The notes below the pieces were generated by a model, which was not told where the DNA came from, did no database searches, and saw nothing but the letters and a program-made list of their open reading frames with translations. The translations under genes and the position numbers were made by a program. Shown here piece after piece: positions 24,466 through 41,568 of a stretch of DNA of 64,000 bases. Origin of the DNA: Alphaproteobacteria bacterium (GTDB lineage: Bacteria > Pseudomonadota > Alphaproteobacteria > Rs-D84). Position 1 is the stretch's first letter. Each line of letters begins with the position of its first letter. The stretch covers positions 29,759-93,758 of the forward strand of contig JAFZUT010000018.1 of the NCBI GenBank assembly GCA_017618175.1, given 5' to 3'.

Positions 24466-25524
24466 ATGGAAAACGATAAAAAAATTATTGCGATTGATGC
24501 GATGGGGGGCGACAAAGGCCCCGCCGCGGTTCTTGGTGGCATAAATCAGTTTTTATATCAACACAACGAATCCGGTGTGTATTTTCACATATTTGGCGAT
24601 GAAAAACGTTTGCGCAAAATGTTGGCGCGTTATCCGCGTGTCGCGCGTAATTCCACCGTTATAAATGCGCCGGGTGTGATTCGTATGACGGACAAGATTC
24701 GCGATGTTATTCGTCATGCCCAAGATACATCTATGTATATGGCAATCAAAGATGTTCGCGAAGGCAACGCGTCTGCGGTGGTCAGTGCGGGCAACACCGG
24801 CGTTTTAATGTCACTTGCAAAATTGGCGTTAAAGACGGTTGATGGAATTTCACGCCCGGCAATAACGACAATGTTGCCGTCGGGTGCGGGTGATTCCCGT
24901 GTGGTCGTGTTGGATTTGGGTGCAAATGTCAAATGTGATGCCGGCGATTTGTTTGACTTTGCGATTCTGGGTGGTGTTTATGCCGAGGTTATCGGGAAAA
25001 TGCCACGCCCGAAACTTGGTGTATTAAATATCGGCGAGGAGACCACCAAGGGCAACGAAACATTACAACAGATAAACAATTTACTGACCGCGCACCGCGA
25101 TGAATTGCCTTATGAATACCTTGGGTTTGTTGAACCCACAGATATCAGTGCCGGCCGGGTCCAGGTTGTCGTGACGGATGGTTTCACCGGAAACATTGTT
25201 TTGAAAACGGTCGAAGGAACCGCGAAACTTATCAAACGCGTAATCAGTGAAAATATGAAAAAATCGTGGCTGGCCATAATTGGTGCGTTTTTCTTGGTGC
25301 ACGTTTTCAAACGCCTTAAACATAAAATTGACCCGCGTTCATATGCCGGGGCGACATTTTTGGGATTAAAGGGTTTTGCGGTTAAAACGCATGGCAATTC
25401 GGATGCATTGGCATTTGCAAATGCAATTCAATACGCGGCGGATTTGGCCAAGAACGATTTGAACGATATAATCCGCACGCGTGCGGCGAACATGGCCCCC
25501 ATCCGCGCCGAATTACAAGAATAA
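24466..25524 (+). CDS. plsX: Phosphate acyltransferase PlsX
   Basis: 352 aa with full-length PlsX similarity (IAIDAMGGDKGP, SAGNTG, TDGFTGNIVLK). Confidence 0.95.
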   Translation: MENDKKIIAIDAMGGDKGPAAVLGGINQFLYQHNESGVYFHIFGDEKRLRKMLARYPRVARNSTVINAPGVIRMTDKIRDVIRHAQDTSMYMAIKDVREGNASAVVSAGNTGVLMSLAKLALKTVDGISRPAITTMLPSGAGDSRVVVLDLGANVKCDAGDLFDFAILGGVYAEVIGKMPRPKLGVLNIGEETTKGNETLQQINNLLTAHRDELPYEYLGFVEPTDISAGRVQVVVTDGFTGNIVLKTVEGTAKLIKRVISENMKKSWLAIIGAFFLVHVFKRLKHKIDPRSYAGATFLGLKGFAVKTHGNSDALAFANAIQYAADLAKNDLNDIIRTRAANMAPIRAELQE

Positions 25525-25558
25525 TTATTGTCGTATTTGGTATTTTTATAAAAAACGC

Positions 25559-25588
25559 TTGCATTAAAAATCATATTTTTGATAAAAT
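25559..25588 (+). promoter_or_regulatory. Candidate extended -10 promoter for the 170-aa secreted-protein gene
   Basis: TTGCAT, an 18-nt spacer, then TGATAAAAT (TGn + TAAAAT). Confidence 0.35.
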
Positions 25589-25594
25589 TACAGT

Positions 25595-25847
25595 TGAATC
25601 GAATGGGAATTCGTTTCGGGACCTTCAAAAGTCCATATTTCCCGGTGCCTGATGGACATCGTAATTCCGCGATAATTCCGTTTTTTGGCACCGAAAGAAT
25701 TATCCCCGACCGAGTGCGGTTCGGGGTGCCGGCGAAATATACAACAGGCATTGCCGAAATTCGTCGGGATCGTTGGAAATATGATTTTTGAACACCCCGA
25801 CCGTCATTTCCATTGACGGTTATTTATTTGAAACAAAGAGGGGAAAT
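25595..25847 (+). promoter_or_regulatory. Long (~250 nt) structured 5' leader
   Basis: Nested pairings: GGCACC...GGTGCC encloses CCCCGACC-GAGTGC-GGTTCGGGG. Also GAATCGAATGGGAATTCGTTTC, plus hairpin ACCGTCA-TTTCCAT-TGACGGT just before the RBS. Confidence 0.3.
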
Positions 25848-26360
25848 ATGAGTAAAGTTTTATTATTCGGGCTAATCGCATCGGTTTTAACAATCAACGC
25901 ATTTGCCGATCCGGTCACAATCACGACCCAAGATTATGTTGATACCACGGTCGCCACCAAACAAGATAAAATATCCGCCCATGGTACGGTTAGTATTGGA
26001 AACGTTTCTGCCTATGGGCTTCCTGATTCTGTTATAACCGACACCGATACAGACGGTGTTGTCGCAAAACGGGTTATTATGTATGGTGCCGGTCCGTGGT
26101 ACGTTACAACCGACTATATGGGCAATGCTCTTAAACAAGGCGTACTTTTGACGCAAAACTCGATTAAGAGTATGGCGAACACTATGGGGTACAGTGACGA
26201 TGATTTGGACAAGGCATTGGTTTCCGCCGGTGTGATAAATGATGCCTTTCGTAAAACGAACGAGACAATATTAAATAGACAACTTAAAAAAGTCTGTGTT
26301 CAATGGATTGAAAATGTGGCCGAAACCGATGCAAATTGTTTGTTGTGGAATTTACCGTAA
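25848..26360 (+). CDS. Secreted protein (170 aa), paralogue of 11004..11603 (DYVD...KQDKI and NCLLWNL motifs)
   Basis: An internal ATG with RBS AGAGGGG gives the signal peptide MSKVLLFGLIASVLTINAFA. Shares TxDYVDxxxAxKQxKI and the C-terminal NCLLWNL with the 199-aa protein. Confidence 0.75.
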   Translation: MSKVLLFGLIASVLTINAFADPVTITTQDYVDTTVATKQDKISAHGTVSIGNVSAYGLPDSVITDTDTDGVVAKRVIMYGAGPWYVTTDYMGNALKQGVLLTQNSIKSMANTMGYSDDDLDKALVSAGVINDAFRKTNETILNRQLKKVCVQWIENVAETDANCLLWNLP

Positions 26361-26380
26361 ATAGCAAATTTCTTATAAAA

Positions 26381-26406
26381 ACACCGGCGGGAAACCGCCG
26401 ATGTTT
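26381..26406 (+). terminator. Rho-independent terminator
   Basis: CGGCGG-GAAA-CCGCCG hairpin followed by a T-run. Confidence 0.65.
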
Positions 26407-26463
26407 TTACCATCGCCCACTTTCGCGCGTTGCACTTCGGTGGACAGGGCCTGACGAAAGTGA

Positions 26464-26604
26464 CCGTCATCCCGTGCTTTTTCTTCGTCATCCCGGCGAA
26501 TGCCGGGATCTCTTCGTTATCAGGTGAGACTGAAAAGATACCGCCCTATATCACCCACAAAAATGCAGCTCATTTTTGCGGGACCCGATGTGGCGGTATG
26601 ACGG
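26464..26604. repeat. MITE-like nested palindromic repeat, copy 1 (~140 bp)
   Basis: Termini CCGTCATCCCGTG ... GGCGGTATGACGG. Internal modules GTCATCCCGGCGAATGCCGGGATCTCTTCG and CACCCACAAAAATGCAGCTCATTTTTGCGGGACCCGA are shared with 33695..33834. Confidence 0.8.
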
Positions 26605-26633
26605 TGTTATGATAATTACTAATACAAAAATAC

Positions 26634-26657
26634 ATATCGGCGGTTACCCGCCGATAT
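26634..26657 (-). terminator. Terminator of the 111-aa minus-strand gene
   Basis: ATATCGGCGG-GTAA-CCGCCGATAT followed by a T-rich tract on the minus strand. Confidence 0.6.
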
Positions 26658-26706
26658 GCTCTCCTTCCTTCCGGAAACCGGAAACTGTTTGTTTGTGTGT
26701 AAAAAA

Positions 26707-27042
26707 TTATGCCGCCATTGCCACGGTGTTTTCAGATTTGCCTTCTTCGGCGTCCATAATCCGCTTGGCTTCGGCAAAGACCATTTCTTTCACACGCAAC
26801 GCCAATTCTTTCGTGTCCAGCGATTCCGCCGCAACATCGAAATTATCGGTACGAATTTGCAATGAAACATAGGCGCCGACCAAAGAAGTGCGTGGCAAAT
26901 CTTCGATTGAACGTGGCGCGTTGTTGTGACCGATTTGCAATTCATCGCTAAGCGATATTATCTGTCGGTCGGCATTGACCCACACGGTTGTGCTTAACAC
27001 TTTGTGCAGGGCAATCATGATTTCTTTGATGTTTTTTGGCAT
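26707..27042 (-). CDS. Hypothetical protein (111 aa)
   Basis: Strong RBS (AGGAGGGA), its own terminator, no signal peptide, no family recognised. Confidence 0.6.
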   Translation of the reverse strand: MPKNIKEIMIALHKVLSTTVWVNADRQIISLSDELQIGHNNAPRSIEDLPRTSLVGAYVSLQIRTDNFDVAAESLDTKELALRVKEMVFAEAKRIMDAEEGKSENTVAMAA

Positions 27043-27090
27043 GTGGCGTTCCCTCCTTTCTGGGCGTTGTCAAAAATTCAAAGCAGTTTT

Positions 27091-27113
27091 TGTATTTACA
27101 CGATGTATTTACA
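27091..27113. promoter_or_regulatory. Operator-like duplicated 10-bp palindrome
   Basis: TGTATTTACA-CGA-TGTATTTACA lies ~50-70 nt upstream of the 26707..27042 start. Each unit is TGTA-N2-TACA. Confidence 0.35.
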
Positions 27114-27302
27114 AATCACTGAATCAAATTTTTTGGTTGTTCCTTGTTTTTCCCAGAAAACCGCGTTTTCCTTAGATTTCTGGGCTTTTTTGTTTTGGTC
27201 CCTTTGTCTATACACGGATGATAGAACAAAAACGAATCGATGGTCAAGAGAAAAAATGAAAAAAATTAAAAAAAATTTTATTTTTTGAAAAAGTCTTTGC
27301 AA

Positions 27303-28886
27303 TTACACGAATTTTTCAGGGATGATTTTGGTCATTTTTTTGAATATGCGTCTAAAAATTGTTGTGTCGGGGTCACGGGTGTACACACGTGGTTTTGTAT
27401 CCCCGGTTCTGCGCCCGGTCCATATTGTTTTATCGCCGTCTGTGGTCACGTGCCAAGATGTCTGGGTGTCGCGCATAATCATATCACGCACGCGCGCCGC
27501 GAATTCTGGGCTTTCAAATATCGCTACATTTTCTGTATTGTAATATGCGCTGCGTGGGTCCAGGTTAAAACTGCCTATCCACGAAATTTTGTCATCAAAA
27601 ACAATTGTTTTACTGTGCATAACCGAAAAGCACGATGGTTTGTTCAGGTGTCTGCGCCGTCCACCGCGCAAATTTTCCGCCGACAACATAAATTCATACA
27701 CGTCCGCACCGCCATTTATTAAATCGCGCCGATAATTTTCCCATTTTCCAAAGACGGTTGGCGCATTTGTTGATGCCAAAGAATTTGTAACAATGGTTAT
27801 ATGAACGCCGGCCTTTTGTTCGTTTTGCATCAATTTCATTCCGCCAATTCCCGGCACAAAATATGCCGCAGACACATACACACTGTGTCGGGTTTCGCGC
27901 CAAAGCCGGTTTAATGCCAACATAATTTCACCACGATATCGTTCTTTGCGTTCCATCGGCATTTCGACTTTTTCCGGTGGGTCTGCAATAAATCGACCGT
28001 GTCCCCAACAAAAATCGAACAGTTTATTTTTGAATTCGTATATCACCAAAGATATAATTTTATTATATCGGCGAACGCTTTCGTTACTGGTCCGTTCTAA
28101 TTCGGCAAAATTCCGTTCAAATTTGTTCATTGCGCAACGCGATTTAGCCTTTGGAATAACGAACGCAGGTACCGCCAAGTGATGCATCCAATATTTATTA
28201 AAACTGTCCGCGGCGCCACGCGTGATTTCGCCCAAGAACAAAACGTCTGTGTCGGAAAAATTTGATGCATCATCGGGCATAAAATAATTACTGCCCACAT
28301 TGCGACCGCCGGTAATCAACGCGACATTATCAACAATGAACAGTTTATTATGCATCCGCGAATTCAACCGGTTAAAATCCATCAATATCTGGGGATAGTA
28401 CAAAATGCGCGACCGATTTTTGACGGCATTAAAGATTTTCACTTCTATATTTGGATGTTGGTTCAGTAAAATTACATCTGCGATATCGGAACGTGTGCCA
28501 TAATCGTCAATCAGTATGCGCACCTTGACCCCGCGGTCGGCGGCATTTTTAAGTTCCCCAATTAAAATTCGCGAAGAAAAATCATTACTGTAAATATATG
28601 TTTGAATGTCAATGGTTTTTGTTGCCATACGCGCAAATGCGGCGCGAATGACAAACGCAGACAGGCCGTCTTCAATCAGTGTTGCGCCACTAACATTTTT
28701 CGATTGATTTAATTCAGTTTCATATTGTTTGGCAATTGGCGTCTGCATCGGGTCATATTCCGCATCCGCTGCGACAATTTTTGGGTTATATGTTGCCAAA
28801 CGTTTGTCGCGCAAACTGGTTGGGATGGTTGTGCAACCAACAAACGGCAACGCCAATAATAACCAAGAAAAATTACTCAAAGCCAT
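27303..28886 (-). CDS. Phospholipase D-family lipoprotein (two HKD motifs; ClsC/PLD-like)
   Basis: Lipobox signal (LLLALPFVGC). HKD motifs HNKLFIVDNVALITGGRN and HSKTIVFDDKISWIGSFN. Confidence 0.85.
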   Translation of the reverse strand: MALSNFSWLLLALPFVGCTTIPTSLRDKRLATYNPKIVAADAEYDPMQTPIAKQYETELNQSKNVSGATLIEDGLSAFVIRAAFARMATKTIDIQTYIYSNDFSSRILIGELKNAADRGVKVRILIDDYGTRSDIADVILLNQHPNIEVKIFNAVKNRSRILYYPQILMDFNRLNSRMHNKLFIVDNVALITGGRNVGSNYFMPDDASNFSDTDVLFLGEITRGAADSFNKYWMHHLAVPAFVIPKAKSRCAMNKFERNFAELERTSNESVRRYNKIISLVIYEFKNKLFDFCWGHGRFIADPPEKVEMPMERKERYRGEIMLALNRLWRETRHSVYVSAAYFVPGIGGMKLMQNEQKAGVHITIVTNSLASTNAPTVFGKWENYRRDLINGGADVYEFMLSAENLRGGRRRHLNKPSCFSVMHSKTIVFDDKISWIGSFNLDPRSAYYNTENVAIFESPEFAARVRDMIMRDTQTSWHVTTDGDKTIWTGRRTGDTKPRVYTRDPDTTIFRRIFKKMTKIIPEKFV

Positions 28887-28988
28887 ACGAACATTATACC
28901 GTCCCCATCACATTTAGCAAGTCAAATCAGCGTGAAAAAAATCCCAACACAGATAAAATTCATTTCATCCGTGTTTTTCACTTGCGTT

Positions 28989-29014
28989 GATAATCGTGAT
29001 AATGATAAAATAAT
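28989..29014. promoter_or_regulatory. Fur-box-like GATAAT hexamer array
   Basis: GATAAT-CGT-GATAAT-GATAAA-ATAAT lies 25-50 nt upstream of the 29039 start. GATAATGATAA matches the first 11 nt of the classical Fur consensus. Confidence 0.35.
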
Positions 29015-29038
29015 ACGGAACGGAAGGAAGATTTTACA

Positions 29039-32000
29039 ATGAAAAGACTTGCTATATTTATTGGTGGCCTGCTTGTGTTGCCCGCATTTGCTGAGGTTGC
29101 ACCTGTTTTATATGAAGATATTGAATACGCGGATGTTGTGTATGATGAATACGGCAATCCGGTGTATTACACCGATTATACGGACGCGGATTTAACCCCG
29201 GAAATGGACGAAAATGTGACGATGCCTTCTGTTCCTGCGTCACGCAGTGGATCCGCATCGCGTGCAAACACTAACCGCACAACAATCGGTCGAACGGTAC
29301 CCACAACCAATGCGGGTGCGGCCACGGGTCGTGCGTCTGCGGCAAATTCGTCACGTGTGGTGGCGGCGCGTACAACATCGAATTCTTCCCCACGTTCAAA
29401 CACCAATTCGCGCAGTGTTTCATCGCGTACAACATCAACCACGGCAACGCGCACAACAACCGATACAGATGCCACGCGGGCGGCGGCAACCCGTGCAACG
29501 GGCGGGGCGGGGCGTACCGCAACATCAACCCGCACAGGCGCATCCGGTGGTGCGACGGTGGCACGAACAACAACATCGCGTAATGCGACATCATCGCGCA
29601 CGGCAACGACCGGTGCACGTGTAAATCGTGCATCGACCAACGCGGCGGTGGGGGTGACCGGCAATGTTATATCTGCTGCGCCCATCCGGGTAACCACGGC
29701 CAGCGGCACAACAAACGCGGATTACCTTACCGACAGTGGCCAAAGATTATATAACGCAAACGGTGCACGTGTCAGTGTTGCGAACCGTGTTCCAACAATT
29801 CGTATGTCATCGGTCAGTGGCATTTCCACCGATACCACATCGGTCAGTGCGACCACCCCCGCAGAAATGGACGAATTGGCGGAATTAACCGATTATTGCA
29901 AGGCCCAATATGCGGCGTGCATGGATAATTATTGTAACGTCTTGGACGACAACCAAGGCCGTTGCAGTTGCAGTGCCAATATTAAAAATTATGCCAAGGC
30001 CGAGGCCGCATTGAAACAGGCAACCGAAGAATTGCAAGAGGTTGCACAAAAGATTCAATACATTGGTTTGTCCGCGCGCGAGGTTGAAACCCTGTTCACC
30101 CAGACCGAGGCGGAATTGAAAATGCAATCCACCACCGATACCAGTCAGTTAAAGACCAGTCTGGACAAGATAAAAGATATGATTATCGAGGTTCAATCCG
30201 GCAACGCATCATCTTCGAATTCGTCTTTCCTTTCGTTTGATTTATCGGGTCTGTTGGACTTTACTATTGACAGCACCGGTTTTGATTTATCTTCGTTCTT
30301 GGGTGGTTTTGGCACGAATTCAAACGGTATCAATAACCAACGCGGCGAAGAATTGTTCAAAACCGCAACAAATCGTTGCAAGGCGAACGTCTTAAAGGCC
30401 TGCACGGCCCAGGGTGTTGACGGTTCATTGGTTACGAACGCGTATGATTTAGAAATTGACCGCGAATGTATCGCCTATGAACGCAGCCTGAACGATTCCA
30501 ACGACCAAATGGTTGCAACGGTGCGCAACGCCAAAAGCGTTCTGCAAAAGGCGCGCCTGTTGGTGGAACAATCGAAAAACGAATACGATATGCGCGGATG
30601 CATAAACGCACTTGATTCCTGTATGCAGGATGAATACGTTTGCGGCACGGATTATGAAAAGTGCCTTGATCCGTCCGGCCGCTATATCGTGAACGGCGAA
30701 ATAGTTATTGGTACCGACCCGGGTCGCGCGGTGAATGGCATTGGAGACGCCACAAATGCCACGGGTGTGTTGGACGGCGATATATGCAGTATGAATTTGT
30801 ATAACGTTTGGAATTATGGTTCATCCACGGCGGGCCAAACAACGGCCGGTTGCAAAAACGCATGGAACAGTTACAGCCTGAACGGTTCCAACAATGGTAA
30901 TTTGGCGGATTATATAAACACAACCGTGACGGCAACTGCGGCCAAGAACGGCGGTTTGGGTATGTCTGAATTTATCCAAAACAAAATCGGTTATGTTGAT
31001 GGCGACAAAAATTATGGTATGTGCATATCGGTGCTGAATAAATGCCAAGATTACACATACACCGGCAAGGGTTCTTCGCGTAAATATAACCCCGTGAACG
31101 AGGTTGTAAAACAATACTTGGATCGTATGTTGATTCAAATCAAGGCAAAGCAAGACCAAATCTTGGCGGAACACGCGGAAAGTTGTATAACGGACGTGAC
31201 AACATGCCTGTCCCAGAACAATTATCCGTTTGATGAGGCATCAACGAACCAGGTTCAGGCGAATATCGCAATCAACGCGTGCCGTTCAACAATCGTGACA
31301 TGTATGTCGGTGAATGGTTATTCGGTTGAAAACCCGACCCCATCTGATTTATCACGTTGGATTTGTGGTATTACCACCGGCAGTGTCGATTGCATCCCAA
31401 ATTCCGGCGGCGGTTCCGGGGGGGGTGAGACAACAACCTATACAGTTACATACAATTGCAACGGTGGAACTGGGACGGCACCGGCGTCACAAACGGTTCA
31501 ATATAACACTCAATTCATGACACGTGCCAACACATGTACCAAACCGAGTGCAAGTCAAACGTTTGATGGGTGGCTTGTGGGAAGTACGTCATCTGATAGT
31601 GTTGTTTGGCTTGCAAATAGGACATATACATACAATTATCAATCTGATAAAACACTTTATGCGCGTTGGACTACGGTGACGGGTTCTTGCACTCCAACGA
31701 CACTTGGAAATTGTAACGAAACAACGTGCGGAAGTTTGGGGGGAAATTACATATGGTGTACTACCGGGTCTAGCAGACCGTCTTGTAAATTAAGAACAGA
31801 TTGTCCGGCCGCATGCAGCGCGACCAATTTGCCGGCATGCGACAGTGATGAGTGTGGGTTGTACAATGGTAATTGGTGCGCATCGGGAACAACGATTAAC
31901 TTCTCATGCAGTGATACTGCAGGTGCCTGTTGTTTGGGCAATCCAACCGGTTGCACGCGCAATCAGTGTGATGCCCTGAATTATAAATGGTGTGTCCAAA

Positions 32001-32200
32001 GAACTGGCGATACACCCAAGTGTACGAGTCAGTCATATCAAGTGGAATGTTGTGTTGGTTCTGTCGCGGGTTGCGCACGCGAGCCGGATTGTATCGCCGT
32101 TGGTGGAACGTGGAATGGGACCAGTTGCAGTGGCAGTGGAGATGATGGTAGGTACCAATATAATACGATAGAAATTGAAGGTGCGGAAGTAAATCCATAA
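29039..32200 (+). CDS. Large secreted multidomain Cys-rich protein (1053 aa)
   Basis: Signal peptide (LLVLPAFAEV). Arg/Ser/Thr/Ala-rich low-complexity region at about aa 66-215. Long helical region with six C-x6-7-C motifs. One Listeria-Bacteroides (InlB B-repeat) type domain at aa 800-878 (YTVTYNCNGGTG...FDGW...TLYARW). Four tandem 4-Cys modules at aa 884-1030. Confidence 0.8.
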   Translation: MKRLAIFIGGLLVLPAFAEVAPVLYEDIEYADVVYDEYGNPVYYTDYTDADLTPEMDENVTMPSVPASRSGSASRANTNRTTIGRTVPTTNAGAATGRASAANSSRVVAARTTSNSSPRSNTNSRSVSSRTTSTTATRTTTDTDATRAAATRATGGAGRTATSTRTGASGGATVARTTTSRNATSSRTATTGARVNRASTNAAVGVTGNVISAAPIRVTTASGTTNADYLTDSGQRLYNANGARVSVANRVPTIRMSSVSGISTDTTSVSATTPAEMDELAELTDYCKAQYAACMDNYCNVLDDNQGRCSCSANIKNYAKAEAALKQATEELQEVAQKIQYIGLSAREVETLFTQTEAELKMQSTTDTSQLKTSLDKIKDMIIEVQSGNASSSNSSFLSFDLSGLLDFTIDSTGFDLSSFLGGFGTNSNGINNQRGEELFKTATNRCKANVLKACTAQGVDGSLVTNAYDLEIDRECIAYERSLNDSNDQMVATVRNAKSVLQKARLLVEQSKNEYDMRGCINALDSCMQDEYVCGTDYEKCLDPSGRYIVNGEIVIGTDPGRAVNGIGDATNATGVLDGDICSMNLYNVWNYGSSTAGQTTAGCKNAWNSYSLNGSNNGNLADYINTTVTATAAKNGGLGMSEFIQNKIGYVDGDKNYGMCISVLNKCQDYTYTGKGSSRKYNPVNEVVKQYLDRMLIQIKAKQDQILAEHAESCITDVTTCLSQNNYPFDEASTNQVQANIAINACRSTIVTCMSVNGYSVENPTPSDLSRWICGITTGSVDCIPNSGGGSGGGETTTYTVTYNCNGGTGTAPASQTVQYNTQFMTRANTCTKPSASQTFDGWLVGSTSSDSVVWLANRTYTYNYQSDKTLYARWTTVTGSCTPTTLGNCNETTCGSLGGNYIWCTTGSSRPSCKLRTDCPAACSATNLPACDSDECGLYNGNWCASGTTINFSCSDTAGACCLGNPTGCTRNQCDALNYKWCVQRTGDTPKCTSQSYQVECCVGSVAGCAREPDCIAVGGTWNGTSCSGSGDDGRYQYNTIEIEGAEVNP

Positions 32201-32221
32201 AATATTACGAGGGATGATAAT

Positions 32222-33658
32222 ATGAAGAAATTTTTGACATGTGCGTTATGTTTTATGCCGTCTATTGCCGGTGCGGTGACTTTGTATTACACTCCGGGCC
32301 GTGAATGTCCCGGTTTGTACTTGAATTCTGCTGAAATCGGTTGCCCGGCGGATTCCCTGCGTGTGACACAATTAAATGTGACATCCCGTGCAGACGCAGA
32401 TTTTACTGGATATAATGTTGGCAATGTTGAAATTGTAGATTCCACCGGCAATATTAAATCAAACGCGGTTGAAACATTGGCCGCCGCAGCCGCAGCCGGC
32501 AATACTGTTTCCAAAGTCACCGGAAATTACGAATGCCAAACCGGCGCCCGGGAAAACAGCAACGGTGTGTGTGTCAATGCACTGTCTTTGGACACATCCA
32601 CATCTGAAAATATCGCATATATTGATTGGGAATCTTTGGTGAATAACACAAATCTTGATTCTGGTTACGAAATAGATCCCAATCAAATAAAAGATGATGG
32701 CGGCAAAGGCTGCTATTACGACAGGGATTTCGATATAGTGATTCATTGGTGCCCAAAAAATTATTCCGCAATTGATTATTCATATGGTGGTGCACATATT
32801 GCATACGGAAATAATCCCGTTGATTGGTCCGCTTTGCCATGCAATCAATCGACCGAGACATATCATTATCATTGGAACGGGGGAACATCTCTTGGAACAT
32901 ATACCAAAAATGGTGTTACACAAACTGAACTGGTGTTTCCATCTGCACTGGGTTGGTCTCCGCGCGGTTTGTATATTGTGGGTTATCCGGAATTCAAACC
33001 GAACGACAGTTCGTTTAATAACATTCCGTATTATTCGTTGCTTAAAACAATTGCAGATAATTTGGTGACAGAACAAAGTACGACGTGGGGACGTGCACGT
33101 TTGGGTTTACCTTTTAATCAGGCAAATGTCACCGATAGAATAATATTAAACAACACTGTGAATGGTTATGGCGACGCAAATGCAAATTGGCAGATTTGGA
33201 CGTGCCGTGGCGATGTGCAAACTGTTCATATGTATGCGGCATGGGCGCGTGATTGTGCCCCAGGTGATAGCAGCGCAACATGCACACGTCAAATTCAACG
33301 TCATGGTTTATCAAATCCGGACAAAGGCGACACCATGTATTACACATCGTGCACCAGTGGCACGCTTTCCGGCGATGGCACATATAACCCGTCTTGCGGC
33401 GAATGTTCGGCGACAAATTTAGGTCAATGTAGTAAAAAAGACTGCGTATTTTCGAACGCACATTGGTGTGTGGTTGGTGGTACGGAACAATGTGTGGCCC
33501 AAGGCGCATCCGCCAGAAGTTGTTGCGTTGACGATTTTACCGGCTGTGACAGCAAGGGTTGCGGCCTGATGGGTGGCACATGGGATGACACGACATTGAC
33601 ATGTACAGGCAATGACGGTGATGGTGACACCGGAGACGAAAGTCAAGAGGGTGCATAA
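32222..33658 (+). CDS. Secreted Cys-rich protein (478 aa) sharing the C-terminal 4-Cys module
   Basis: Starts 21 nt after the previous gene with RBS GAGGGA. Signal peptide present. The C-terminus carries two copies of the same module (CSATNLGQCSKKDCVFSNAHWCVVGGTEQC, CCVDDFTGCDSKGCGLMGGTWDDTTLTC) and an acidic tail. Confidence 0.8.
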   Translation: MKKFLTCALCFMPSIAGAVTLYYTPGRECPGLYLNSAEIGCPADSLRVTQLNVTSRADADFTGYNVGNVEIVDSTGNIKSNAVETLAAAAAAGNTVSKVTGNYECQTGARENSNGVCVNALSLDTSTSENIAYIDWESLVNNTNLDSGYEIDPNQIKDDGGKGCYYDRDFDIVIHWCPKNYSAIDYSYGGAHIAYGNNPVDWSALPCNQSTETYHYHWNGGTSLGTYTKNGVTQTELVFPSALGWSPRGLYIVGYPEFKPNDSSFNNIPYYSLLKTIADNLVTEQSTTWGRARLGLPFNQANVTDRIILNNTVNGYGDANANWQIWTCRGDVQTVHMYAAWARDCAPGDSSATCTRQIQRHGLSNPDKGDTMYYTSCTSGTLSGDGTYNPSCGECSATNLGQCSKKDCVFSNAHWCVVGGTEQCVAQGASARSCCVDDFTGCDSKGCGLMGGTWDDTTLTCTGNDGDGDTGDESQEGA

Positions 33659-33664
33659 AAAATT

Positions 33665-33690
33665 AAAAACGGGTGTTGCCCCGTTTTTTT
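33665..33690 (+). terminator. Terminator after the two-gene Cys-rich operon
   Basis: A-run, short CGGG...CCCG hairpin, then T7. Confidence 0.5.
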
Positions 33691-33694
33691 ATAT

Positions 33695-33834
33695 CGTCAT
33701 CCCGGCGCAAGAACCCGTCATACCGCCGAAAGGCGGTATCTCTTCAGTATCGCCTAATAACGAAGAGATCCCGTGTCAAAGTCACCCACAAAAATGCAAC
33801 GCATTTTTGCGGGACCCGACGCACGGGATGACGG
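33695..33834. repeat. MITE-like nested palindromic repeat, copy 2 (~140 bp)
   Basis: The right module CACCCACAAAAATGCAACGCATTTTTGCGGGACCCGA has the same orientation as copy 1. The central ~42-nt module (GGCGGTATCTCTTCAG...CGAAGAGATCCCG) is the reverse complement of the copy-1 module. Terminus CACGGGATGACGG complements the copy-1 left terminus. Confidence 0.8.
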
Positions 33835-33841
33835 AATAAAT

Positions 33842-34177
33842 TTAATGATGTGCGATTATATGTGCCGCAATCCCGGCGATTGTTAAAACCGTGATGATTA
33901 TCAAAATAATCTTTTGCGTGTGGTGGTGGTGTGTTTCGCCACAGTGTTCGCAATCACATTCTTGATTATGAAAATACAAAATCCACGACAGCGCCAACAT
34001 TACCCCGGAAAATATAAACAACCATATTTCCGCGCGTTCGGGAATAATTTTATGGTCGGCAAAATCCGGTGCCACCATACCAATAATACCCAACACCACC
34101 GGCAATACACAGCAAAACAGGTGCGGTAATATGCCCGCCAAAATTCCAATACCAATCGCATGATTTTTTTTCTTCAT
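33842..34177 (-). CDS. Small membrane protein with CC and CxCxxC/His-rich motifs (putative metal-binding or transport)
   Basis: 111 aa, 3-4 TM. Motifs HLFCCVLP (as in MerT/MerC-type transporters) and ECDCEHCGETHHHH. Confidence 0.55.
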   Translation of the reverse strand: MKKKNHAIGIGILAGILPHLFCCVLPVVLGIIGMVAPDFADHKIIPERAEIWLFIFSGVMLALSWILYFHNQECDCEHCGETHHHHTQKIILIIITVLTIAGIAAHIIAHH

Positions 34178-34196
34178 CTTATCACCATTTTTTTCT

Positions 34197-34272
34197 TGGT
34201 ATCCCCAGCCGGAATCGAACCAGCATCTAATTCTTAGGAGGAACTTGTTCTATCCAATTGAACTATGGGGAC
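34197..34272 (-). tRNA. tRNA-Arg (anticodon CCT)
   Basis: 76-nt cloverleaf folded by hand. Anticodon loop CTCCTAA, T-loop TTCGATT, encoded CCA. Confidence 0.88.
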
Positions 34273-34364
34273 ACGATGCGCATTTATTTTAACCCCAGAT
34301 TTTGATATTGCAAGTTATATTAAAACCTGTATAATACCAAGGCACGAAAATATAAGGAATTTAT

Positions 34365-35303
34365 ATGGGAAACAAACTTGTTGGATACGGTTCTTATTTG
34401 CCGGCGCGCGTGATGACCAATGCTGATTTTGAACGCGTGATGGATACAACCGACCAATGGATTGTCGAACGCACAGGAATTCATTCTCGGCAATTTGCGG
34501 CCGCCGATGAAACGGTTGCCGATATGGCGGCAAATGCGGCGCGCGCGGCGTTGAAAAATGCGAATTTGACAATTGATGATATTGATATGGTAATTGTCGC
34601 AACGACTACGCCGGAATTGGATTTCCCATCTGTCGCGGTTCAAGTGACCGGTATGTTGGGCGCAACGAAAAATATGCCTGCGTTCGATGTGCGTGGCGCG
34701 TGCACCGGGTTTATATATGCGTTGCATTGCGCGCGCGGGTTCTTTGCGGCGGGCATACACGAACGCATAATGGTTGTTGGCGCAGAAAAAATGTCGCGAT
34801 TTATCGATATGACCGACCGTTCAACGGCTGTTCTGTTTGGTGATGGCGCGGGCGCGTTGATTTTTGAACGTTCCACGTCCAGTTATTCTGGGATAATTGA
34901 TACCGTCGTTATGGCGGACGGGAAAAAGTTTGAAATGCTGCACGGGTCACCGGACCACAAAATTATTATGAATGGACCAGAAACATATAAAATGGCGGTG
35001 TCACTGATGCCGGACGCCGCGCGATATATTATGGAACACGCCGGAATCACCCAAGATGATATAGACTGGATTGTGCCGCACCAGGCGAACATTCGTATAA
35101 TTCAATCGTGCGCGGCGCGCCTTGGGTTTCCAATGGAAAAGATTTTAATAACTGTTGACCGGCACGCGAATACGTCCGGTGCATCAGGCGCATTGGCGTT
35201 GGCGTACGCGTTCGATAATAAAATAATAAAACACGGACAATTGGTTTTGTATCCTGCGTTCGGCAGTGGCCTGACCTGGGGTGCGACACTTATAAGAGTA
35301 TAA
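34365..35303 (+). CDS. fabH: 3-oxoacyl-ACP synthase III
   Basis: 312 aa. Active-site region ACTGFIYAL and HQANIRI motif. Confidence 0.95.
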   Translation: MGNKLVGYGSYLPARVMTNADFERVMDTTDQWIVERTGIHSRQFAAADETVADMAANAARAALKNANLTIDDIDMVIVATTTPELDFPSVAVQVTGMLGATKNMPAFDVRGACTGFIYALHCARGFFAAGIHERIMVVGAEKMSRFIDMTDRSTAVLFGDGAGALIFERSTSSYSGIIDTVVMADGKKFEMLHGSPDHKIIMNGPETYKMAVSLMPDAARYIMEHAGITQDDIDWIVPHQANIRIIQSCAARLGFPMEKILITVDRHANTSGASGALALAYAFDNKIIKHGQLVLYPAFGSGLTWGATLIRV

Positions 35304-35322
35304 ACAAAAAGGGGTAAAAGAA

Positions 35323-35610
35323 ATGGCAACAATAACAAGAAGTAAATTGGCAAAAGATGTGCGCGATGAATTTGGGTTCACAACGGCGCAATCAACACGG
35401 TTGGTCGATGCAATTTTCGATGAAATCTGTGAAAGCTTGATTAGGGGTGAAGAGGTTAAATTCGCCGGTTTCGGCACGTTCAAGATTTTGGATAAATCTG
35501 CGCGTGTGGCACGCAATCCAAAAACAGGTGAAACCGCAATTGTTTCTGCACGCCGTGTCGCGGCATTCCGTCCGTCTAATGAATTTCGCGAACGCGTTTC
35601 CAAGAAATAA
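35323..35610 (+). CDS. ihfA: Integration host factor subunit alpha
   Basis: 95 aa HU/IHF family (GFGTFKILDKSARVARNPKTGE). The fabH-ihfA synteny is typical of alphaproteobacteria. Confidence 0.88.
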   Translation: MATITRSKLAKDVRDEFGFTTAQSTRLVDAIFDEICESLIRGEEVKFAGFGTFKILDKSARVARNPKTGETAIVSARRVAAFRPSNEFRERVSKK

Positions 35611-35634
35611 TTGTAAATGTGAAATTGTATTAGT

Positions 35635-35662
35635 GCGGGCGCAGATTTGCGCCCGTGTTTAT
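35635..35662 (+). terminator. Rho-independent terminator after ihfA
   Basis: GGGCGCA...TGCGCCC hairpin followed by a T-rich tract. Confidence 0.6.
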
Positions 35663-35829
35663 TCTTGACCGTATTATTGGTCGTATGATAAAATAAAACT
35701 GAAAACAAGCAAAGCTTGGTTCAATATTACTTCGGCCTATATGAAACATACACAAGCATATCTTTTATTTATGTTGATGTGATTTTGACCCGAAATAAAT
35801 TTATTCTAAATAATAAAAGGGAAATTAGT

Positions 35830-36843
35830 ATGTTTCATAAAAGTTTGCCGTTGGCGGTATGCCTGGGGGTTGTGTTTGAAGTTGGTGTTGCGTTTGGTGC
35901 GGCATCATTACGGACCGGTCCGGTAAAAAGTTCCATTGATGCATCGGGTGCGGTCAAACGCGGGGGAATTTTACGGACATCCAATGTTCAGTCATTATCT
36001 GGTAAATCATCGATGGCGGTGTCCGCGCCAGATTTGAATTCTACGGCACGTTTAGCCACCGTTTCGGTTGGAACACCAAATAATTTTAACAAGTCTGTGT
36101 CCAGTAAAATGCCAAGTATGACAACCGGCGATTCGGATAAAATTCAAGAATTAAATTCGCGTATAGATTTGTTGGAAAATAATCAAGACAAGGTATTATC
36201 GGATATCGATTTAATCAAAACCGAGATAGCAGATAATGCCAATGACATTTATAACAAAACAGAAATCGATAAATTCATTCCAACGGCCAGTGCAGATGGC
36301 GATAATATGACATGGACCGATACAAAAGGTAATTTCCTTATTTATCCATTGCTTTTTTTTAATCGTGTTTCTGAATATAATTCTCCGCAATTGGTTAACC
36401 GTTATGTATATCGTACGAATACCGCCGAACCGCAAATTTATGCGTATGTCAATCGATTCTGTAATGGCGAAACAGAATGGTGGTGCTATATATCGGGGAA
36501 TATAGAAATATTGGAAAACGGCAACAGAGAATTTGTACTTGTTCAAAGGTTCCCCGGTTATGGTTTTATGTATTCGTTTATCCAAGAATATAATGGTCGA
36601 ACATGGCTGACCAGTAATTTTTATACCAATGAACAAAATCCTGCGGAATATATAAGGACCGCCGTTTGCGAAGACAGACCAGAGGCCGATTGTTATGTAT
36701 CTGCGGTTTTTAACATGTTGGAAATAAATAATAATATAAGCCCGGGTTTGGGTGAATACGCCGCACGTTATCAAGTAAATGTTATGTCTGCAATTGAAAA
36801 GGCATCTGGAAAACCGCGTACCGTTTACCAGGCGTTAATGTAA
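35830..36843 (+). CDS. Secreted hypothetical protein (337 aa)
   Basis: An internal ATG with RBS AAAGGGAAA gives a signal peptide (MFHKSLPLAVCLGVVFEVGVAFG). Short coiled-coil segment and two Cys pairs. No family recognised. Confidence 0.65.
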   Translation: MFHKSLPLAVCLGVVFEVGVAFGAASLRTGPVKSSIDASGAVKRGGILRTSNVQSLSGKSSMAVSAPDLNSTARLATVSVGTPNNFNKSVSSKMPSMTTGDSDKIQELNSRIDLLENNQDKVLSDIDLIKTEIADNANDIYNKTEIDKFIPTASADGDNMTWTDTKGNFLIYPLLFFNRVSEYNSPQLVNRYVYRTNTAEPQIYAYVNRFCNGETEWWCYISGNIEILENGNREFVLVQRFPGYGFMYSFIQEYNGRTWLTSNFYTNEQNPAEYIRTAVCEDRPEADCYVSAVFNMLEINNNISPGLGEYAARYQVNVMSAIEKASGKPRTVYQALM

Positions 36844-36845
36844 AT

Positions 36846-36873
36846 AAAAACGGTTGCGATGGCAACCGTTTTT
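36846..36873. terminator. Bidirectional terminator (convergent genes)
   Basis: AAAAACGGTTGCGATGGCAACCGTTTTT. Confidence 0.7.
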
Positions 36874-36875
36874 CT

Positions 36876-38864
36876 TTACCACAACTTTACGCGTTTTTCT
36901 GGTGCGACATACAATTTGTTTTTGGGGCCAACACCAAAGGCATCGTACCACGCATCAATGTGCGGCAATATGCCGTTTACGCGCCAACGATTCAACGAAT
37001 GTTCGTTGGTTTTCGTTTGAACCAAAACTTGTTCGGGGCGTATTGTTCCAGCCCACGCACCCGCGTACGCAATAAAGAACCGCATATCGGGCGTAAAGTT
37101 TTGCGTCGTTTCAGATTTGCGACCAAAATTTTTATATGCTGTGTACGCAATCGTCACGCCGCCATAATCCGCCAAATTTTCACCCAATGTAAATTCTCCG
37201 TTTGCATGGGTGTTTGGCGCAACCAAAATGTTATCAAAGAATTTTCTCATCACATTTGCACGCGCATTGAATGCATCTGCATCCGCGGGTGTCCACCAAT
37301 CGCGCATATTACCGTCTTTATCAAAGTGGCGGCCCATATCGTCAAATCCGTGTGTCATTTCGTGACCAATAATTGCGCCAATTGCGCCATAGTTAAATGC
37401 ATCATCCGCATCCATATCAAAGAACGGTGGTTGCAATATACCCGCCGGGAAACAAATTTCATTTGTAGATGGATCATAGTATGCATTGATTTCGTGTGCG
37501 TTCATATACCAAATGCTGTCGTCTTTTTCGTGACCGATTTTTTCCATCCAAAAATCATCTTCGAATTTTGCAACGCGCATCATATTTTCAAACAAACTTT
37601 CGTTTTTATCCAAATTCAGTTTTGAATAATCACGCCATTTATCCGGATATCCAATCTTGGCACGGAACGCGTTCAGTTTTTCAATTGCGCGTCCGCGCGT
37701 GTCCGCCGACATCCAGTCCAGTTTTTCGATTCGAATTTTGTACGCACGGCGCAGGTTTTCAACCAATTGTTCCATACGTTTTTTTGCGTCCGCCGGAAAA
37801 TATTTTTCAACATACAACCGTCCAATTTCTTCACCGATTGTTCCGTTCAATGTTGCCACCGCGCGTTTCCAACGTGGTTTCTTTTCTTTTTGCCCAGACA
37901 TAGTGTGGTTAAAGAAATCAAAAGATATATCATATGTTTTGTCATCCAAAAATGCATCCGCCGATAAAATCACACGATATTTCAAATAAGACTTTAGTAA
38001 ATCTAAATCTGTATCATTTATGATTTTTATCGATTCACGTATCGCGTCCGGTTGCCCAACATTAAGAAAATCCGCCGCGGTTGCACCACGGACATCAAAA
38101 TATTTTTCCCAATCAAATCCGGCAAAGTCACGCATAAATTCATCACGTGACATTTTGTGATAGTTTGCATGTGGGTCGCGCAAAACTTCTTTGGTGTGGA
38201 AAGATTTGGCCATACGTTCTTCCATTGCATAAATTTTTTTTGCATCCGCCTGCACCCCAAAATTTTTGAGTTGCGATGCAATAAATTCAATATACTTTTT
38301 ACGAATTTCCACCGTGCGTGCATCTTCATCAAAATAATAATCCCGCGAAAGCCCGATGCCACCTTGGTGTATGTTGTAAAGATAATGTTCGCTGTCGCGT
38401 TCATCTAATGCGACTGCATCACCCCAAAATGAAGAAATAAAGCCGTGTATCTTGCCCAAATATTCCGGCAATTCAGATTTAGATTTTATTGCGTCAATTT
38501 CATCAAAATATTTCTTTACAGGTGTGATGCCGTCCGCGTTCAAACGCGATTCATCCATTGTTATTTTATACAGCATTCCAATTTTACCACCATCATTTTC
38601 GGCAATTTCACGAACGCGATTCAAATTGGTATCATGCAAAATATCAAACACGCCATATCGCGTGTAATCATCCGGAATCGGGTTCGCACGCCGCCAACGC
38701 AATGTCGCATAATCAAAAAAGTCATCCGCCGGATTGACCAATGTTTCAATGCTGTTTATATCAATACCTGTGTTCATTTTTTTGCCCCCTTTGAATTGTA
38801 TTGCAAATATTATTGCCGCCATTACGGCAATAATACCCAAAATATTTAACAACGTATGTCGCAT
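36876..38864 (-). CDS. pepO: M13-family zinc metalloendopeptidase (PepO / endothelin-converting-enzyme-like)
   Basis: 662 aa. N-terminal anchor, HEMTHGFDD (HExxH) and GENLADYGG motifs. Confidence 0.9.
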   Translation of the reverse strand: MRHTLLNILGIIAVMAAIIFAIQFKGGKKMNTGIDINSIETLVNPADDFFDYATLRWRRANPIPDDYTRYGVFDILHDTNLNRVREIAENDGGKIGMLYKITMDESRLNADGITPVKKYFDEIDAIKSKSELPEYLGKIHGFISSFWGDAVALDERDSEHYLYNIHQGGIGLSRDYYFDEDARTVEIRKKYIEFIASQLKNFGVQADAKKIYAMEERMAKSFHTKEVLRDPHANYHKMSRDEFMRDFAGFDWEKYFDVRGATAADFLNVGQPDAIRESIKIINDTDLDLLKSYLKYRVILSADAFLDDKTYDISFDFFNHTMSGQKEKKPRWKRAVATLNGTIGEEIGRLYVEKYFPADAKKRMEQLVENLRRAYKIRIEKLDWMSADTRGRAIEKLNAFRAKIGYPDKWRDYSKLNLDKNESLFENMMRVAKFEDDFWMEKIGHEKDDSIWYMNAHEINAYYDPSTNEICFPAGILQPPFFDMDADDAFNYGAIGAIIGHEMTHGFDDMGRHFDKDGNMRDWWTPADADAFNARANVMRKFFDNILVAPNTHANGEFTLGENLADYGGVTIAYTAYKNFGRKSETTQNFTPDMRFFIAYAGAWAGTIRPEQVLVQTKTNEHSLNRWRVNGILPHIDAWYDAFGVGPKNKLYVAPEKRVKLW

Positions 38865-40014: not shown

Positions 40015-41568
40015 ATGAGAAAGGCGTTAGTTTCGTTTTTGCCGGCAATTTTACTTCATTTTGTGGCCGTTGGGTCAAATGAAGGGGTGCCGGTTTATTA
40101 TCAAAAAGACAAGGCCGCAACATCTAATCAGTTAAATTATGGCGAATACGCGGACAAAGGATATACCAAATACGTCGGTACATCTGGTTCCAAACAGGTG
40201 GTCGGCACACGAACATACACATATCGTAATGAACGCACAAAAACCCAGGATATCCCAACATATATCGATGGTATGACATATACAAATTCTGGGGCGATGA
40301 CGGTGAACGGTGTTGCGACATCAATGGAACTTGAACGCAGAACACACATTTATGCCGGATATTCGCGGCGGTTTGCAGACTTTGAATTTCAAACGGGTGT
40401 AAATTCTATTCTTGAATGGGATGATATGGTTTTTAACGAGGTCAATGTTGGTGCCCGTCATGTATTTTCTTTGCACAATTTTGATTTGTTTGCGTTTGGT
40501 GAATACACATATGGCGATATGTCCCACGGTGGGCTGTCTATGGATTATGATTTGGAACCGTATGATTGGAATACGCCGAACGATGGAATTTTCACTATAT
40601 CTATGGGTGACCAATCCGGGCGTTCGCATCATTTGCGTTTCGGCATTGGGGCGCACCACGTGTGGGATATCGGCGGGTGGAAATTTTCACCGGTTATCGG
40701 TTATGAAATTTTCAAGCACGATTTGAAAATGTCCGATCACCTGTATCCTAACCAGGGTGTATACCTGCCATTGATGACCAGTGGTGGCGAATATGTATAT
40801 GGTGATGCCGAAGGAAACTATTTTTCTATGCCGACCAATGTCACACCACCCGATAATTGGTACCAGGTTTGTATGGGCCCCGAAGATATGCGTGTCGTGA
40901 ACCAATCCACCGGCAGCGCGATTGGTGGGTACGTGACGGGTTATGGAAACTTGTTGACCACGATGGAATATGACCCAAGTTGGGGTATTGTGCCGTGGGG
41001 CGTACCCGAAGGTGATTGCGTTATCATCGGTGGTGACGGCCCGATTAAGGTTGGTGGTGTGACGCACATTTACAACACAACGTGGAGTGGTTTCTATTTC
41101 GGGTTAGAGGTGGAAAAGCAAATGACGCTTGCGGATAAATTGCGTTTCTATTTCCAGGTCGGTTTGCCCAAGTATTCATCCGAAGGCATTTGGCCGAACC
41201 GTACCGATTGGCAACAAAGCCCAAGTTTCTTGGACGAAGGCAGCAACGGATCGTATTCTTATGCCGCGGAAATGGAATATGACCTGCGGTTGTCATCGCG
41301 TTTGCAATTGGCGTTAAAGGTTGACACAAATCTGTTCCATGTGGGCAAGATTCCGGGAAAACTGTATATTGCCGAATACACAGATTTCGTGTATGACGAA
41401 AATGGTCAATTGGTGGTATATGAAGGTATAGATCCAATAACGGGCGAAACGGTTCTGTATCCAGAATTAAATCAGGTTGCCGCCCATACCGAACACATCA
41501 GCAATTCTTTGAAACAGGCAACCTGGCAATCATTTGGATTGCACATAGGATTTAAATACGCATTTTAA
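40015..41568 (+). CDS. Outer-membrane beta-barrel protein (517 aa)
   Basis: Hydrophobic N-terminus, alternating beta-strand pattern rich in Tyr/Gly, aromatic C-terminus ...GFKYAF. Confidence 0.6.
   Translation: MRKALVSFLPAILLHFVAVGSNEGVPVYYQKDKAATSNQLNYGEYADKGYTKYVGTSGSKQVVGTRTYTYRNERTKTQDIPTYIDGMTYTNSGAMTVNGVATSMELERRTHIYAGYSRRFADFEFQTGVNSILEWDDMVFNEVNVGARHVFSLHNFDLFAFGEYTYGDMSHGGLSMDYDLEPYDWNTPNDGIFTISMGDQSGRSHHLRFGIGAHHVWDIGGWKFSPVIGYEIFKHDLKMSDHLYPNQGVYLPLMTSGGEYVYGDAEGNYFSMPTNVTPPDNWYQVCMGPEDMRVVNQSTGSAIGGYVTGYGNLLTTMEYDPSWGIVPWGVPEGDCVIIGGDGPIKVGGVTHIYNTTWSGFYFGLEVEKQMTLADKLRFYFQVGLPKYSSEGIWPNRTDWQQSPSFLDEGSNGSYSYAAEMEYDLRLSSRLQLALKVDTNLFHVGKIPGKLYIAEYTDFVYDENGQLVVYEGIDPITGETVLYPELNQVAAHTEHISNSLKQATWQSFGLHIGFKYAF

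Follow-up and report, generated by a model that had tools for sequence, protein, structure and literature searches.

What are the small cysteine-rich units that stand head to tail at the C-terminal ends of two adjacent secreted proteins in an alphaproteobacterium of the Rs-D84 lineage, and what might they do there? The question arises in a stretch of 64,000 nucleotides (Alphaproteobacteria bacterium, assembly GCA_017618175.1, contig JAFZUT010000018.1, positions 29,759 to 93,758 of the forward strand), hereafter the window, in which the neighbouring genes P1 and P2 end in such arrays; the arrays take up the last 170 codons of P1 and the last 87 codons of P2. The original prediction, made from the letters of the window, described an unassigned four-cysteine module present four times in P1 and twice in P2, in ranges that correspond to P1 amino acids 884-1031 and P2 amino acids 392-461. 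All six peptides that it quoted were found, starting at amino acids 884, 926, 964 and 1004 of P1 and at amino acids 395 and 434 of P2. The repeat is confirmed here as real and as homologous between P1 and P2, and the module is claimed by none of the curated families searched. The two proteins and their units, in window coordinates, are the following.

29039 to 32200, plus strand: P1, a secreted protein of 1053 amino acids (open reading frame (ORF) call)
31688 to 31804, plus strand: P1 module 1, extended six-cysteine unit, amino acids 884-922 (unit alignment, shuffles)
31814 to 31930, plus strand: P1 module 2, extended six-cysteine unit, amino acids 926-964, the unit used for AlphaFold (unit alignment, shuffles)
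31931 to 32050, plus strand: P1 module 3, extended six-cysteine unit, amino acids 965-1004, its C1 abutting C6 of module 2 (unit alignment)
32051 to 32128, plus strand: P1 module 4, short four-cysteine terminal unit, amino acids 1005-1030, without a cysteine after the tryptophan and without a sixth cysteine (unit alignment, shuffles)
32222 to 33658, plus strand: P2, a secreted protein of 478 amino acids belonging to a small family (ORF call)
33404 to 33523, plus strand: P2 module 1, extended six-cysteine unit, amino acids 395-434 (unit alignment, shuffles)
33524 to 33604, plus strand: P2 module 2, short four-cysteine terminal unit, amino acids 435-461 (unit alignment, shuffles)

A cysteine-rich module repeated in two adjacent proteins

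Since cysteine-rich sequences align easily, each pair of units was compared with 1000 composition-preserving shuffles. The four long units, of which P1 has three and P2 one, align with one another at z = 3.9-9.5, with at most one of the 1000 shuffles reaching the observed score (0-1/1000), and the two short terminal units of P1 and P2 align at z = 6.1; some pairs of a long and a short unit are individually non-significant (z 0.2-1.9). A profile made from the four P1 units, searched against the window in 590 six-frame segments, recovered P2 as the top non-self match (E = 3.3e-4), and the reverse search, in which the P2 units find P1, gave E = 2.7e-7. When P2 was compared by BLASTP with 121 proteins of the P1 family only the cysteine arrays matched (E 1.7e-6 to 5e-9). 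When the profile was made only of unrelated outside proteins, the P1 units still scored 16 bits, whereas 2000 shuffles reached no more than 5.1; P2 was not reported by this profile at a domain E < 1. The claim of a genuine modular repeat common to both neighbours is thus borne out by the shuffle scores, the reciprocal profiles and BLASTP. Within the 64-kb window the module was found nowhere else. No DNA repeats longer than 19 nt are shared among the units or between P1 and P2, which rules out a recent duplication or gene conversion at the DNA level and indicates that the units are old duplicates whose kinship shows in the protein sequences alone. The idea that the N-terminal 390 amino acids of P2 derive from the C-terminal cassettes of the P1 family was rejected as well, because BLASTP finds the cysteine array alone in common.

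When the units are aligned with those of homologues, the module resolves into a core of about 27 amino acids with four cysteines, C1-x6-7-C2-x4-5-C3-x5-9-W-x5-7-C5, and an extended form of about 40 amino acids in which C4 comes immediately after the invariant tryptophan and C6 lies 4-8 residues past C5. The working definition of the family, C1-x6-7-C2-x4-5-C3-x5-9-W-(C4)-x5-9-C5-(x4-8-C6) with an even cysteine count in a protein bearing a signal peptide, describes all six units of the window. The description as a four-cysteine module holds for the core and the short form, but the extended units carry six cysteines. Similarly, the pattern first proposed caught the repeat framework with its tryptophan, but as written it has five cysteine positions rather than four, and the spacing between C2 and C3 is x4-5. 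The P1 array, with 22 cysteines between amino acids 884 and 1030, consists of three extended units and then one short unit, and that of P2 of one extended and then one short unit. The supposed order of a C-type unit followed by a CC-type unit turned out to be an artefact of register, the true order being one or more extended six-cysteine units and then a single short four-cysteine unit. The CC doublet is not a type of unit but the place where C6 of one unit abuts C1 of the next; units 1 and 2 of P1, which have three residues between them, show no CC at their junction.

The number of cysteines was assessed on units with clear boundaries, including units of other proteins and loci (about 100 instances surveyed). 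Where a cysteine follows the tryptophan, exactly two more come after it (50 of 50 tandem units), and where it is absent exactly one more does so (7 of 7 tandem units, together with 33 terminal units). Because the post-tryptophan cysteine fixes the number of later cysteines, a unit always carries an even number, six or four. This co-occurrence suggests that the extension amounts to one extra disulfide involving the cysteine next to the tryptophan. In an alignment of 53 modules the tryptophan is invariant and G-x-W is strongly conserved.

Predicted fold, cysteine chemistry and known families

AlphaFold2, applied to one unit (P1 module 2) with the 53-sequence module alignment, predicted a short helix at residues 11-17 followed by a β-hairpin at residues 20-23 and 30-33, with a mean predicted local distance difference test (pLDDT) score of 82. 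In an AlphaFold model of P1 amino acids 255-1053, units 1 and 3 of the array again show these helix-hairpin elements. The cysteines would be expected to form disulfides after Sec export, given the even cysteine counts, the signal peptides and the presence in the window of an exported CPHC protein of thioredoxin fold.

47941 to 48531, plus strand: exported thioredoxin-fold protein of 196 amino acids with an N-terminal hydrophobic segment and a DsbA-type CPHC motif (motif scan; Pfam Glutaredoxin, E = 4.7e-6)

This protein is a candidate periplasmic disulfide oxidase that may act on the modules. Its gene adjoins one for an Fe/Mn superoxide dismutase that is extended at the N-terminus (47212-47898, minus strand).

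It is highly improbable that the four conserved cysteines instead coordinate a metal, zinc or iron, rather than forming disulfides. The core does have exactly four invariant cysteines, and when the 53 modules were scanned singly against Pfam no consistent family emerged but the most frequent match was an unrelated zinc-finger model, at chance level (3/53, best E = 0.047). However, the spacings (x6-7, x4-5 and x12-17) contain no CxxC knuckles, the Sec signal peptides imply that the proteins are exported unfolded, the extended form adds cysteines as a pair, as expected of an extra disulfide, and a zinc-ribbon fold is unsupported by Foldseek and Pfam alike.

Pfam-A was run at E<=10 on both arrays, on single units and on the 53 separate modules, and gave nothing meaningful for either array or for the single units; NCBIfam gave no match to the arrays. 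A module profile searched against all PDB sequences made one chance match (E = 0.98), and at E<=10 it retrieved no chain containing PSI or EGF. The unit model compared by Foldseek with the PDB found nothing below E = 1.8 (template modelling (TM) score <= 0.46), and compared with BFVD nothing at all. In the literature, neither the module nor P1 was found described.

The module is unlikely to be a highly diverged member of a known small disulfide-rich family such as PSI, EGF-like or CSαβ, since the number and spacing of its cysteines are unlike all three frameworks. Like PSI (PF01437), which is about 45-50 amino acids long and serves as a rigid connector between larger domains, the module is a small extracellular cysteine-rich unit with a Trp-Cys pair mid-domain. 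Its C...C..C....WC....C motif recalls that of PSI (C..sC..C....CgWC....C), and a small PSI alignment was therefore built for hhalign, composed of the MET sequence, verified against 1ssl, and three integrin sequences. Hhalign did align C3...WC of the 53-module alignment in this register, but with a probability of 0.45%, E = 0.13 and over only 13 columns. PSI (PF01437, PF17960 and PF24479) was rejected, the results of hhalign, Pfam (1/53, E = 5.4), the PDB profile and Foldseek all being negative. Unlike PSI, which is eukaryotic and has eight cysteines with C-x2-C and C-x-W-C, the module has four or six, with C-x4-5-C and no cysteine two residues before the tryptophan.

EGF-like domains (PF00008 and relatives) share with the module a length of about 40 amino acids, six cysteines and head-to-tail arrays, and with their three disulfides they form stalks of secreted and surface proteins. 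However, EGF is all-β with the pattern C-x7-C-x4-5-C-x10-13-C-x-C-x8-C, whereas the module has a predicted helix at 11-17, an invariant tryptophan and no C-x-C; Pfam EGF and EGF_3 each matched 1/53 modules (E = 0.055 and 0.084, respectively), and an EGF-like assignment was rejected. The predicted short helix packed on a β-hairpin, with cysteines in helix and strands, recalls the CSαβ folds of defensins and scorpion toxins, and β-defensins were among the insignificant top matches of Foldseek (best E = 7, TM 0.43). However, the CSαβ signature of CxxxC in the helix and CxC in the strand is absent from the module, which has C-x4-5-C, and CSαβ peptides are single-domain effectors whereas the module stands in tandem arrays; a defensin-like assignment was likewise rejected.

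Granulin has twelve cysteines and four true CC doublets within one module, whereas CC occurs here only at unit junctions; no Pfam Granulin match was obtained at E<=10 for the arrays or the 53 modules, and granulin was rejected. Foldseek found no knottin at E<=10, and the four cysteines of the short form are too few for a cystine knot, which in knottins takes three disulfides (I-IV, II-V, III-VI). Hevein (CBM18) units, as in wheat-germ agglutinin, are disulfide-rich tandem units of 30-43 amino acids with conserved glycine and aromatic residues, and they have eight cysteines including a genuine CC doublet. Here too the CC of the module differs, being a unit junction only, and hevein was rejected, as there was no Pfam Chitin_bind_1 match at E<=10; similarity to CBM14 or any other lectin model in Pfam was also absent. 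The earlier failure to place the module in a known family therefore holds through Pfam, NCBIfam, the PDB profile, Foldseek (PDB and BFVD) and hhalign against PSI, and the resemblances to granulin-like CC doublets, EGF and PSI failed on testing.

A known domain type that travels with the module is Flg_new (PF09479; Flg_new_2, PF18998), a putative copy of which directly precedes the P1 array, and which is also present in P0143, one of the outside proteins treated below. The module resembles this Flg_new/InlB B-repeat type as a building block of bacterial surface proteins but is not homologous to it, Flg_new being a β-rich domain of about 70 amino acids with no cysteine framework. The module represents a previously uncatalogued small extracytoplasmic domain family, albeit of a familiar kind of domain. 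An extracytoplasmic location would be consistent with the signal peptides on both proteins, the exported CPHC protein and an outer-membrane porin encoded in the window.

Protein architecture, exchange of arrays and a putative role

P1 is ordered as a signal peptide, a low-complexity region rich in Arg, Ser and Thr, a helical core with cysteine pairs, a Flg_new-like β domain, the four cysteine modules and an acidic tail. Further features of the two genes are the following.

29039 to 29092, plus strand: predicted Sec signal peptide of P1, MKRLAIFIGGLLVLPAFA before EVAP (read from the sequence, cleavage site placed by eye)
31439 to 31663, plus strand: Listeria-Bacteroides-repeat-like (Flg_new) β domain, P1 amino acids 801-875, directly before the modules (Pfam PF09479, AlphaFold)
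32129 to 32197, plus strand: acidic C-terminal tail of P1, SGSGDDGRYQYNTIEIEGAEVNP, with the family-wide aromatic/hydrophobic tail motif, amino acids 1031-1053 (sequence)
33605 to 33655, plus strand: Gly/Asp-rich acidic tail of P2, TGNDGDGDTGDESQEGA (sequence)
33665 to 33688, strand unassigned: GC-rich terminator-like hairpin with flanking A/T runs just past the P2 stop (consensus scan only)

P1 amino acids 801-875 score 24.6 bits with PF09479 (E = 2.8e-5), below the gathering cut-off of 27, and 13.6 with TIGR02543 (cut-off 20.95). The PF09479 call is precomputed for many P1 homologues, and in the AlphaFold model the segment is β-rich at a pLDDT of about 90. The N-terminus of P2 is a typical Sec signal peptide (MKKFLTCALCFMPSIAGA, before VT). 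P2 starts 21 nt past the P1 stop, behind a GAGGGA ribosome-binding site, and with the terminator-like hairpin after P2 this spacing suggests that the two genes probably form one transcription unit. That both arrays end in acidic Gly/Asp tails, as first noted, is correct for P1 and P2. Between its signal peptide and core (amino acids ~60-250, window 29220-29800), P1 has a long low-complexity region rich in Arg, Ser, Thr and Ala, in which single Arg positions are kept across 28 homologues; anchoring in the cell envelope is one possible role for it.

The P1 family comprises more than 1162 matches annotated as hypothetical proteins and occurs in 266 species-representative genomes, nearly all of them labelled Candidatus Enterousia or uncultured Alphaproteobacteria/Rickettsiales and derived from human, ruminant, horse and chicken guts. 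The group is placed in the order Rs-D84, with genomes below about 1 Mb, no tricarboxylic acid cycle, no respiratory chain and a predicted lifestyle of obligate partner dependence (PMC12306168). The P1 signal peptide is nearly invariant across homologues, and the core (amino acids ~278-774, window 29870-31360) is almost invariant across 113 homologues, with conserved repeated C-x6-C pairs. AlphaFold models this core as mainly helical, in parts at a pLDDT of about 90, and no relative of it was found in Pfam, among PDB sequences or by Foldseek (best E = 1.6). As a lineage-defining protein, the P1 core is arguably more intriguing than the module. The P2 family is represented by 22 matches, its members adjoin P1 homologues, and P2 has no relative in Pfam, NCBIfam or the PDB. 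The block formed by a PLD-like gene, P1 and P2 sits between plsX and fabH, and its order is kept in relatives.

The module itself is sporadic, occurring in about a quarter of P1 homologues and about half of P2 homologues. Among 80 species-level loci, 12 carry it, and there it is confined to the C-terminal region of either the P1 orthologue or the next protein(s) encoded downstream; several P1 homologues carry a single unit right behind the core. A profile search of 1.84 billion representative proteins at E<=1e-3 matched only 13 proteins, four of which are translated-repeat artefacts. The credible outside matches are secreted multi-domain proteins on unrelated contigs, in which the module forms tandem arrays with linkers between the units, at a library-wide significance of 2e-19 for P0143 and of 4e-5 to 7e-4 for P0148, P0149, P0152 and P0153. 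In P0143 ten units of 38 amino acids, joined by PPPP, lie beside an InlB B-repeat domain of divergent sequence; in P0148 a C-type lectin domain (E = 2e-12 to solved C-type lectin-like domains) comes after five short units that have Pro-rich linkers; and P0152 has four short units. P0153, an unrelated protein, repeats the unit order of P1 and P2, with two extended units and then a short one. The 171-amino-acid array alone found no match in a collection of 5.8 billion proteins, although P1 and relatives at >=80% identity are present there and the full-length query succeeded; with so short and compositionally biased a query in a word-indexed search, the null result does not mean absence, as the word index or bias filter can give a false negative.

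Comparison of related strains indicates how the arrays vary. The region after the P1 core is of a mix-and-match kind, with Flg_new-like β repeats, cysteine modules and other cassettes, usually closed by a short common tail. In P0006 the core is 95% and the tail 78% identical and there are no modules. In P0001, from the closest strain (locus L085), the core and the Flg_new-like domain are 100% identical and the modules 84%. Against L085, DNA identity falls from 100% to about 80% over 31650-32500, a tract that takes in the array and the tail and reaches into the start of P2. In the array tract synonymous divergence (dS) is 0.58, compared with 0.05 in the core, and the ratio of nonsynonymous to synonymous divergence (dN/dS) is 0.16; against two more distant orthologues dN/dS is 0.10-0.20 in the array and 0.07-0.11 in the core. 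Positive or diversifying selection as the cause of the contrast between 84% and 100% was therefore rejected, a dS of 0.58 with a dN/dS of 0.16 indicating a recombination tract. Because dN/dS is low and dS jumps within the tract, the array reads as constrained, functional coding sequence that is moved by homologous recombination, neither fast-evolving nor decaying.

More widely, the window from 26630 to 37200 forms a mosaic with L085, in which long blocks of 100%-identical DNA are broken by tracts of 80-91% identity (~27450-27900 in the PLD gene, 29400-29900 in the low-complexity region of P1, 31650-32500 and 33600-33900), and this mosaic indicates frequent homologous recombination in the population. 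Most long proteins of the P1 family and many of the P2 family end in a common tail, an acidic or Gly-rich stretch and then [N/D/S][W/F/Y]xx[ILV]x[ILVF], as in PGSNWRSVEFAGATVAY, LQPAFTVDENLTGQP and RYQYNTIEIEGAEVNP (C-termini of P0003-P0142). The tail is kept even where the preceding cassettes have been swapped, and the P2 of the window is without its aromatic part. It may be a sorting or anchoring signal.

The reading favoured here, with moderate confidence, is that of a disulfide-locked module that serves as a spacer or stalk in a surface-display or adhesion region and whose arrays are exchanged by recombination. Each unit would consist of a 27-amino-acid core with four cysteines and one invariant tryptophan, to which an optional extension adds two cysteines, bringing it to about 40 amino acids. 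After Sec export the unit is predicted to fold as a compact knot that is made up of a helix and a β-hairpin and probably held together by two disulfides in the short form and by three in the extended form, the extra pair involving the cysteine beside the tryptophan. Placed head to tail, the units would belong to the interchangeable cassettes in the C-terminal region of P1 and make up the C-terminus of its partner P2, and would act there as a rigid, protease-resistant spacer or stalk, with arrays passing between strains through recombination. The units may thus behave as rigid beads. A spacer or stalk is favoured because Pro-linked arrays lie between domains in the outside proteins and because a single unit forms a hinge after the core in several P1 homologues.

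Several points weigh against this reading. Disulfide bonding within the units is a prediction from sequence, and in the long P1 model the array is of low confidence (pLDDT 36-59), because few homologues cover it. The lineage is reported to be fermentative and without respiratory chains, which leaves the route for re-oxidation of a Dsb-type oxidase unclear (PMC12306168). The HMMER-level searches, and Foldseek with a model of 39 residues, are insensitive and less sensitive than HHpred, and may have missed a remote relationship to a known small fold. Moreover, nothing but a short tail follows the arrays at the very C-terminus of P1 and P2, so that there is nothing obvious to space out, and this distal position fits a binding tip as well as a stalk.

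A binding tip, the main rival and close to the binding domain first suggested, is possible, if doubtful. In this case each unit would itself bind a ligand, in the manner of a lectin for instance, with the tryptophan and the preceding Gly-Gly as its face, and the terminal arrays would form a specificity tip for host or partner surfaces. The invariance of the tryptophan and the strong conservation of G-x-W across the 53 modules are consistent with such a face, but a lone tryptophan in a 27-residue domain is equally likely to form the hydrophobic core. The array region shows more variation and more recombination than any other part of the locus, yet its dN/dS of 0.1-0.2 does not point to diversifying selection. 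In P0148 the module stands in one protein with a C-type lectin domain; however, the near-identical Pro-linked copies there and in P0143 look like spacers, and the module itself shows no similarity to hevein/CBM18, CBM14 or other lectin models. The predicted partner dependence of the organism (PMC12306168) would also suit a binding role.

Beyond the role as a spacer or stalk, a broader proposal is that Candidatus Enterousia/Rs-D84 uses P1, together with the partner protein(s) encoded downstream, as adhesins that recognise partner cells or the host, the near-invariant core presenting a C-terminal region shuffled by recombination in which the module would be one of the cassettes that set specificity. 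This is rather unlikely. If true, the binding fold of the module would be new in structure, and the locus would offer a handle on the attachment partners of these uncultured bacteria. With the module, the catalogue of small disulfide-rich extracellular domains, thin for bacteria and made up mostly of eukaryotic examples, gains a family that can be defined and searched for. Taken by itself, with no function attached, the module joins the large number of uncharacterised domains in metagenomes. However, the protein end that it marks is variable and probably exposed at the surface, and the protein itself is conserved throughout the sampled species of this uncultured, partner-dependent gut lineage, which makes the P1/P2 locus a sensible first target. 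The locus bears on how these bacteria, with genomes of about 0.9 Mb, contact other cells, on strain typing by C-terminal cassettes and on disulfide formation in a fermentative organism without a respiratory chain.

Surrounding genes

The genes plsX and fabH are normally adjacent. In the window (24466-35303) they lie about 8.8 kb apart, and the interval holds a secreted ORF of 190 amino acids, the PLD-like gene, P1, P2 and a membrane ORF of 111 amino acids, in an order that is kept in relatives. Three neighbouring features are the following.

27303 to 28886, minus strand: PLD/cardiolipin-synthase-like gene, between plsX and fabH
33842 to 34177, minus strand: Cys/His-rich membrane ORF of 111 amino acids (weak MerTP-like match)
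40015 to 41568, plus strand: porin of 517 amino acids, of the Protochlamydia outer-membrane porin family Pom (E = 1.8e-9)

Two ORFs of 111 amino acids flank the PLD-P1-P2 block, and the possibility that they are duplicated boundaries of an insertion was rejected, as their sequences are unrelated. One of the relatives that keep the gene order additionally carries a further secreted protein and a BrnT/BrnA toxin-antitoxin pair. Four ORFs on the plus strand (25788-26360, 35716-36843, 51325-53758 and 53780-55471) have no Pfam or NCBIfam match; some of them start with signal-peptide-like N-termini, and the region is rich in lineage-specific proteins. Type IV secretion genes lie at 6139-10818 on the minus strand and encode VirB10/TrbI-like (803 amino acids), VirB9/CagX-like (516 amino acids) and VirB8-like (218 amino acids) proteins. 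The match of the porin to Pom is consistent with a diderm envelope, and porins of this type are usually found in host-associated bacteria.

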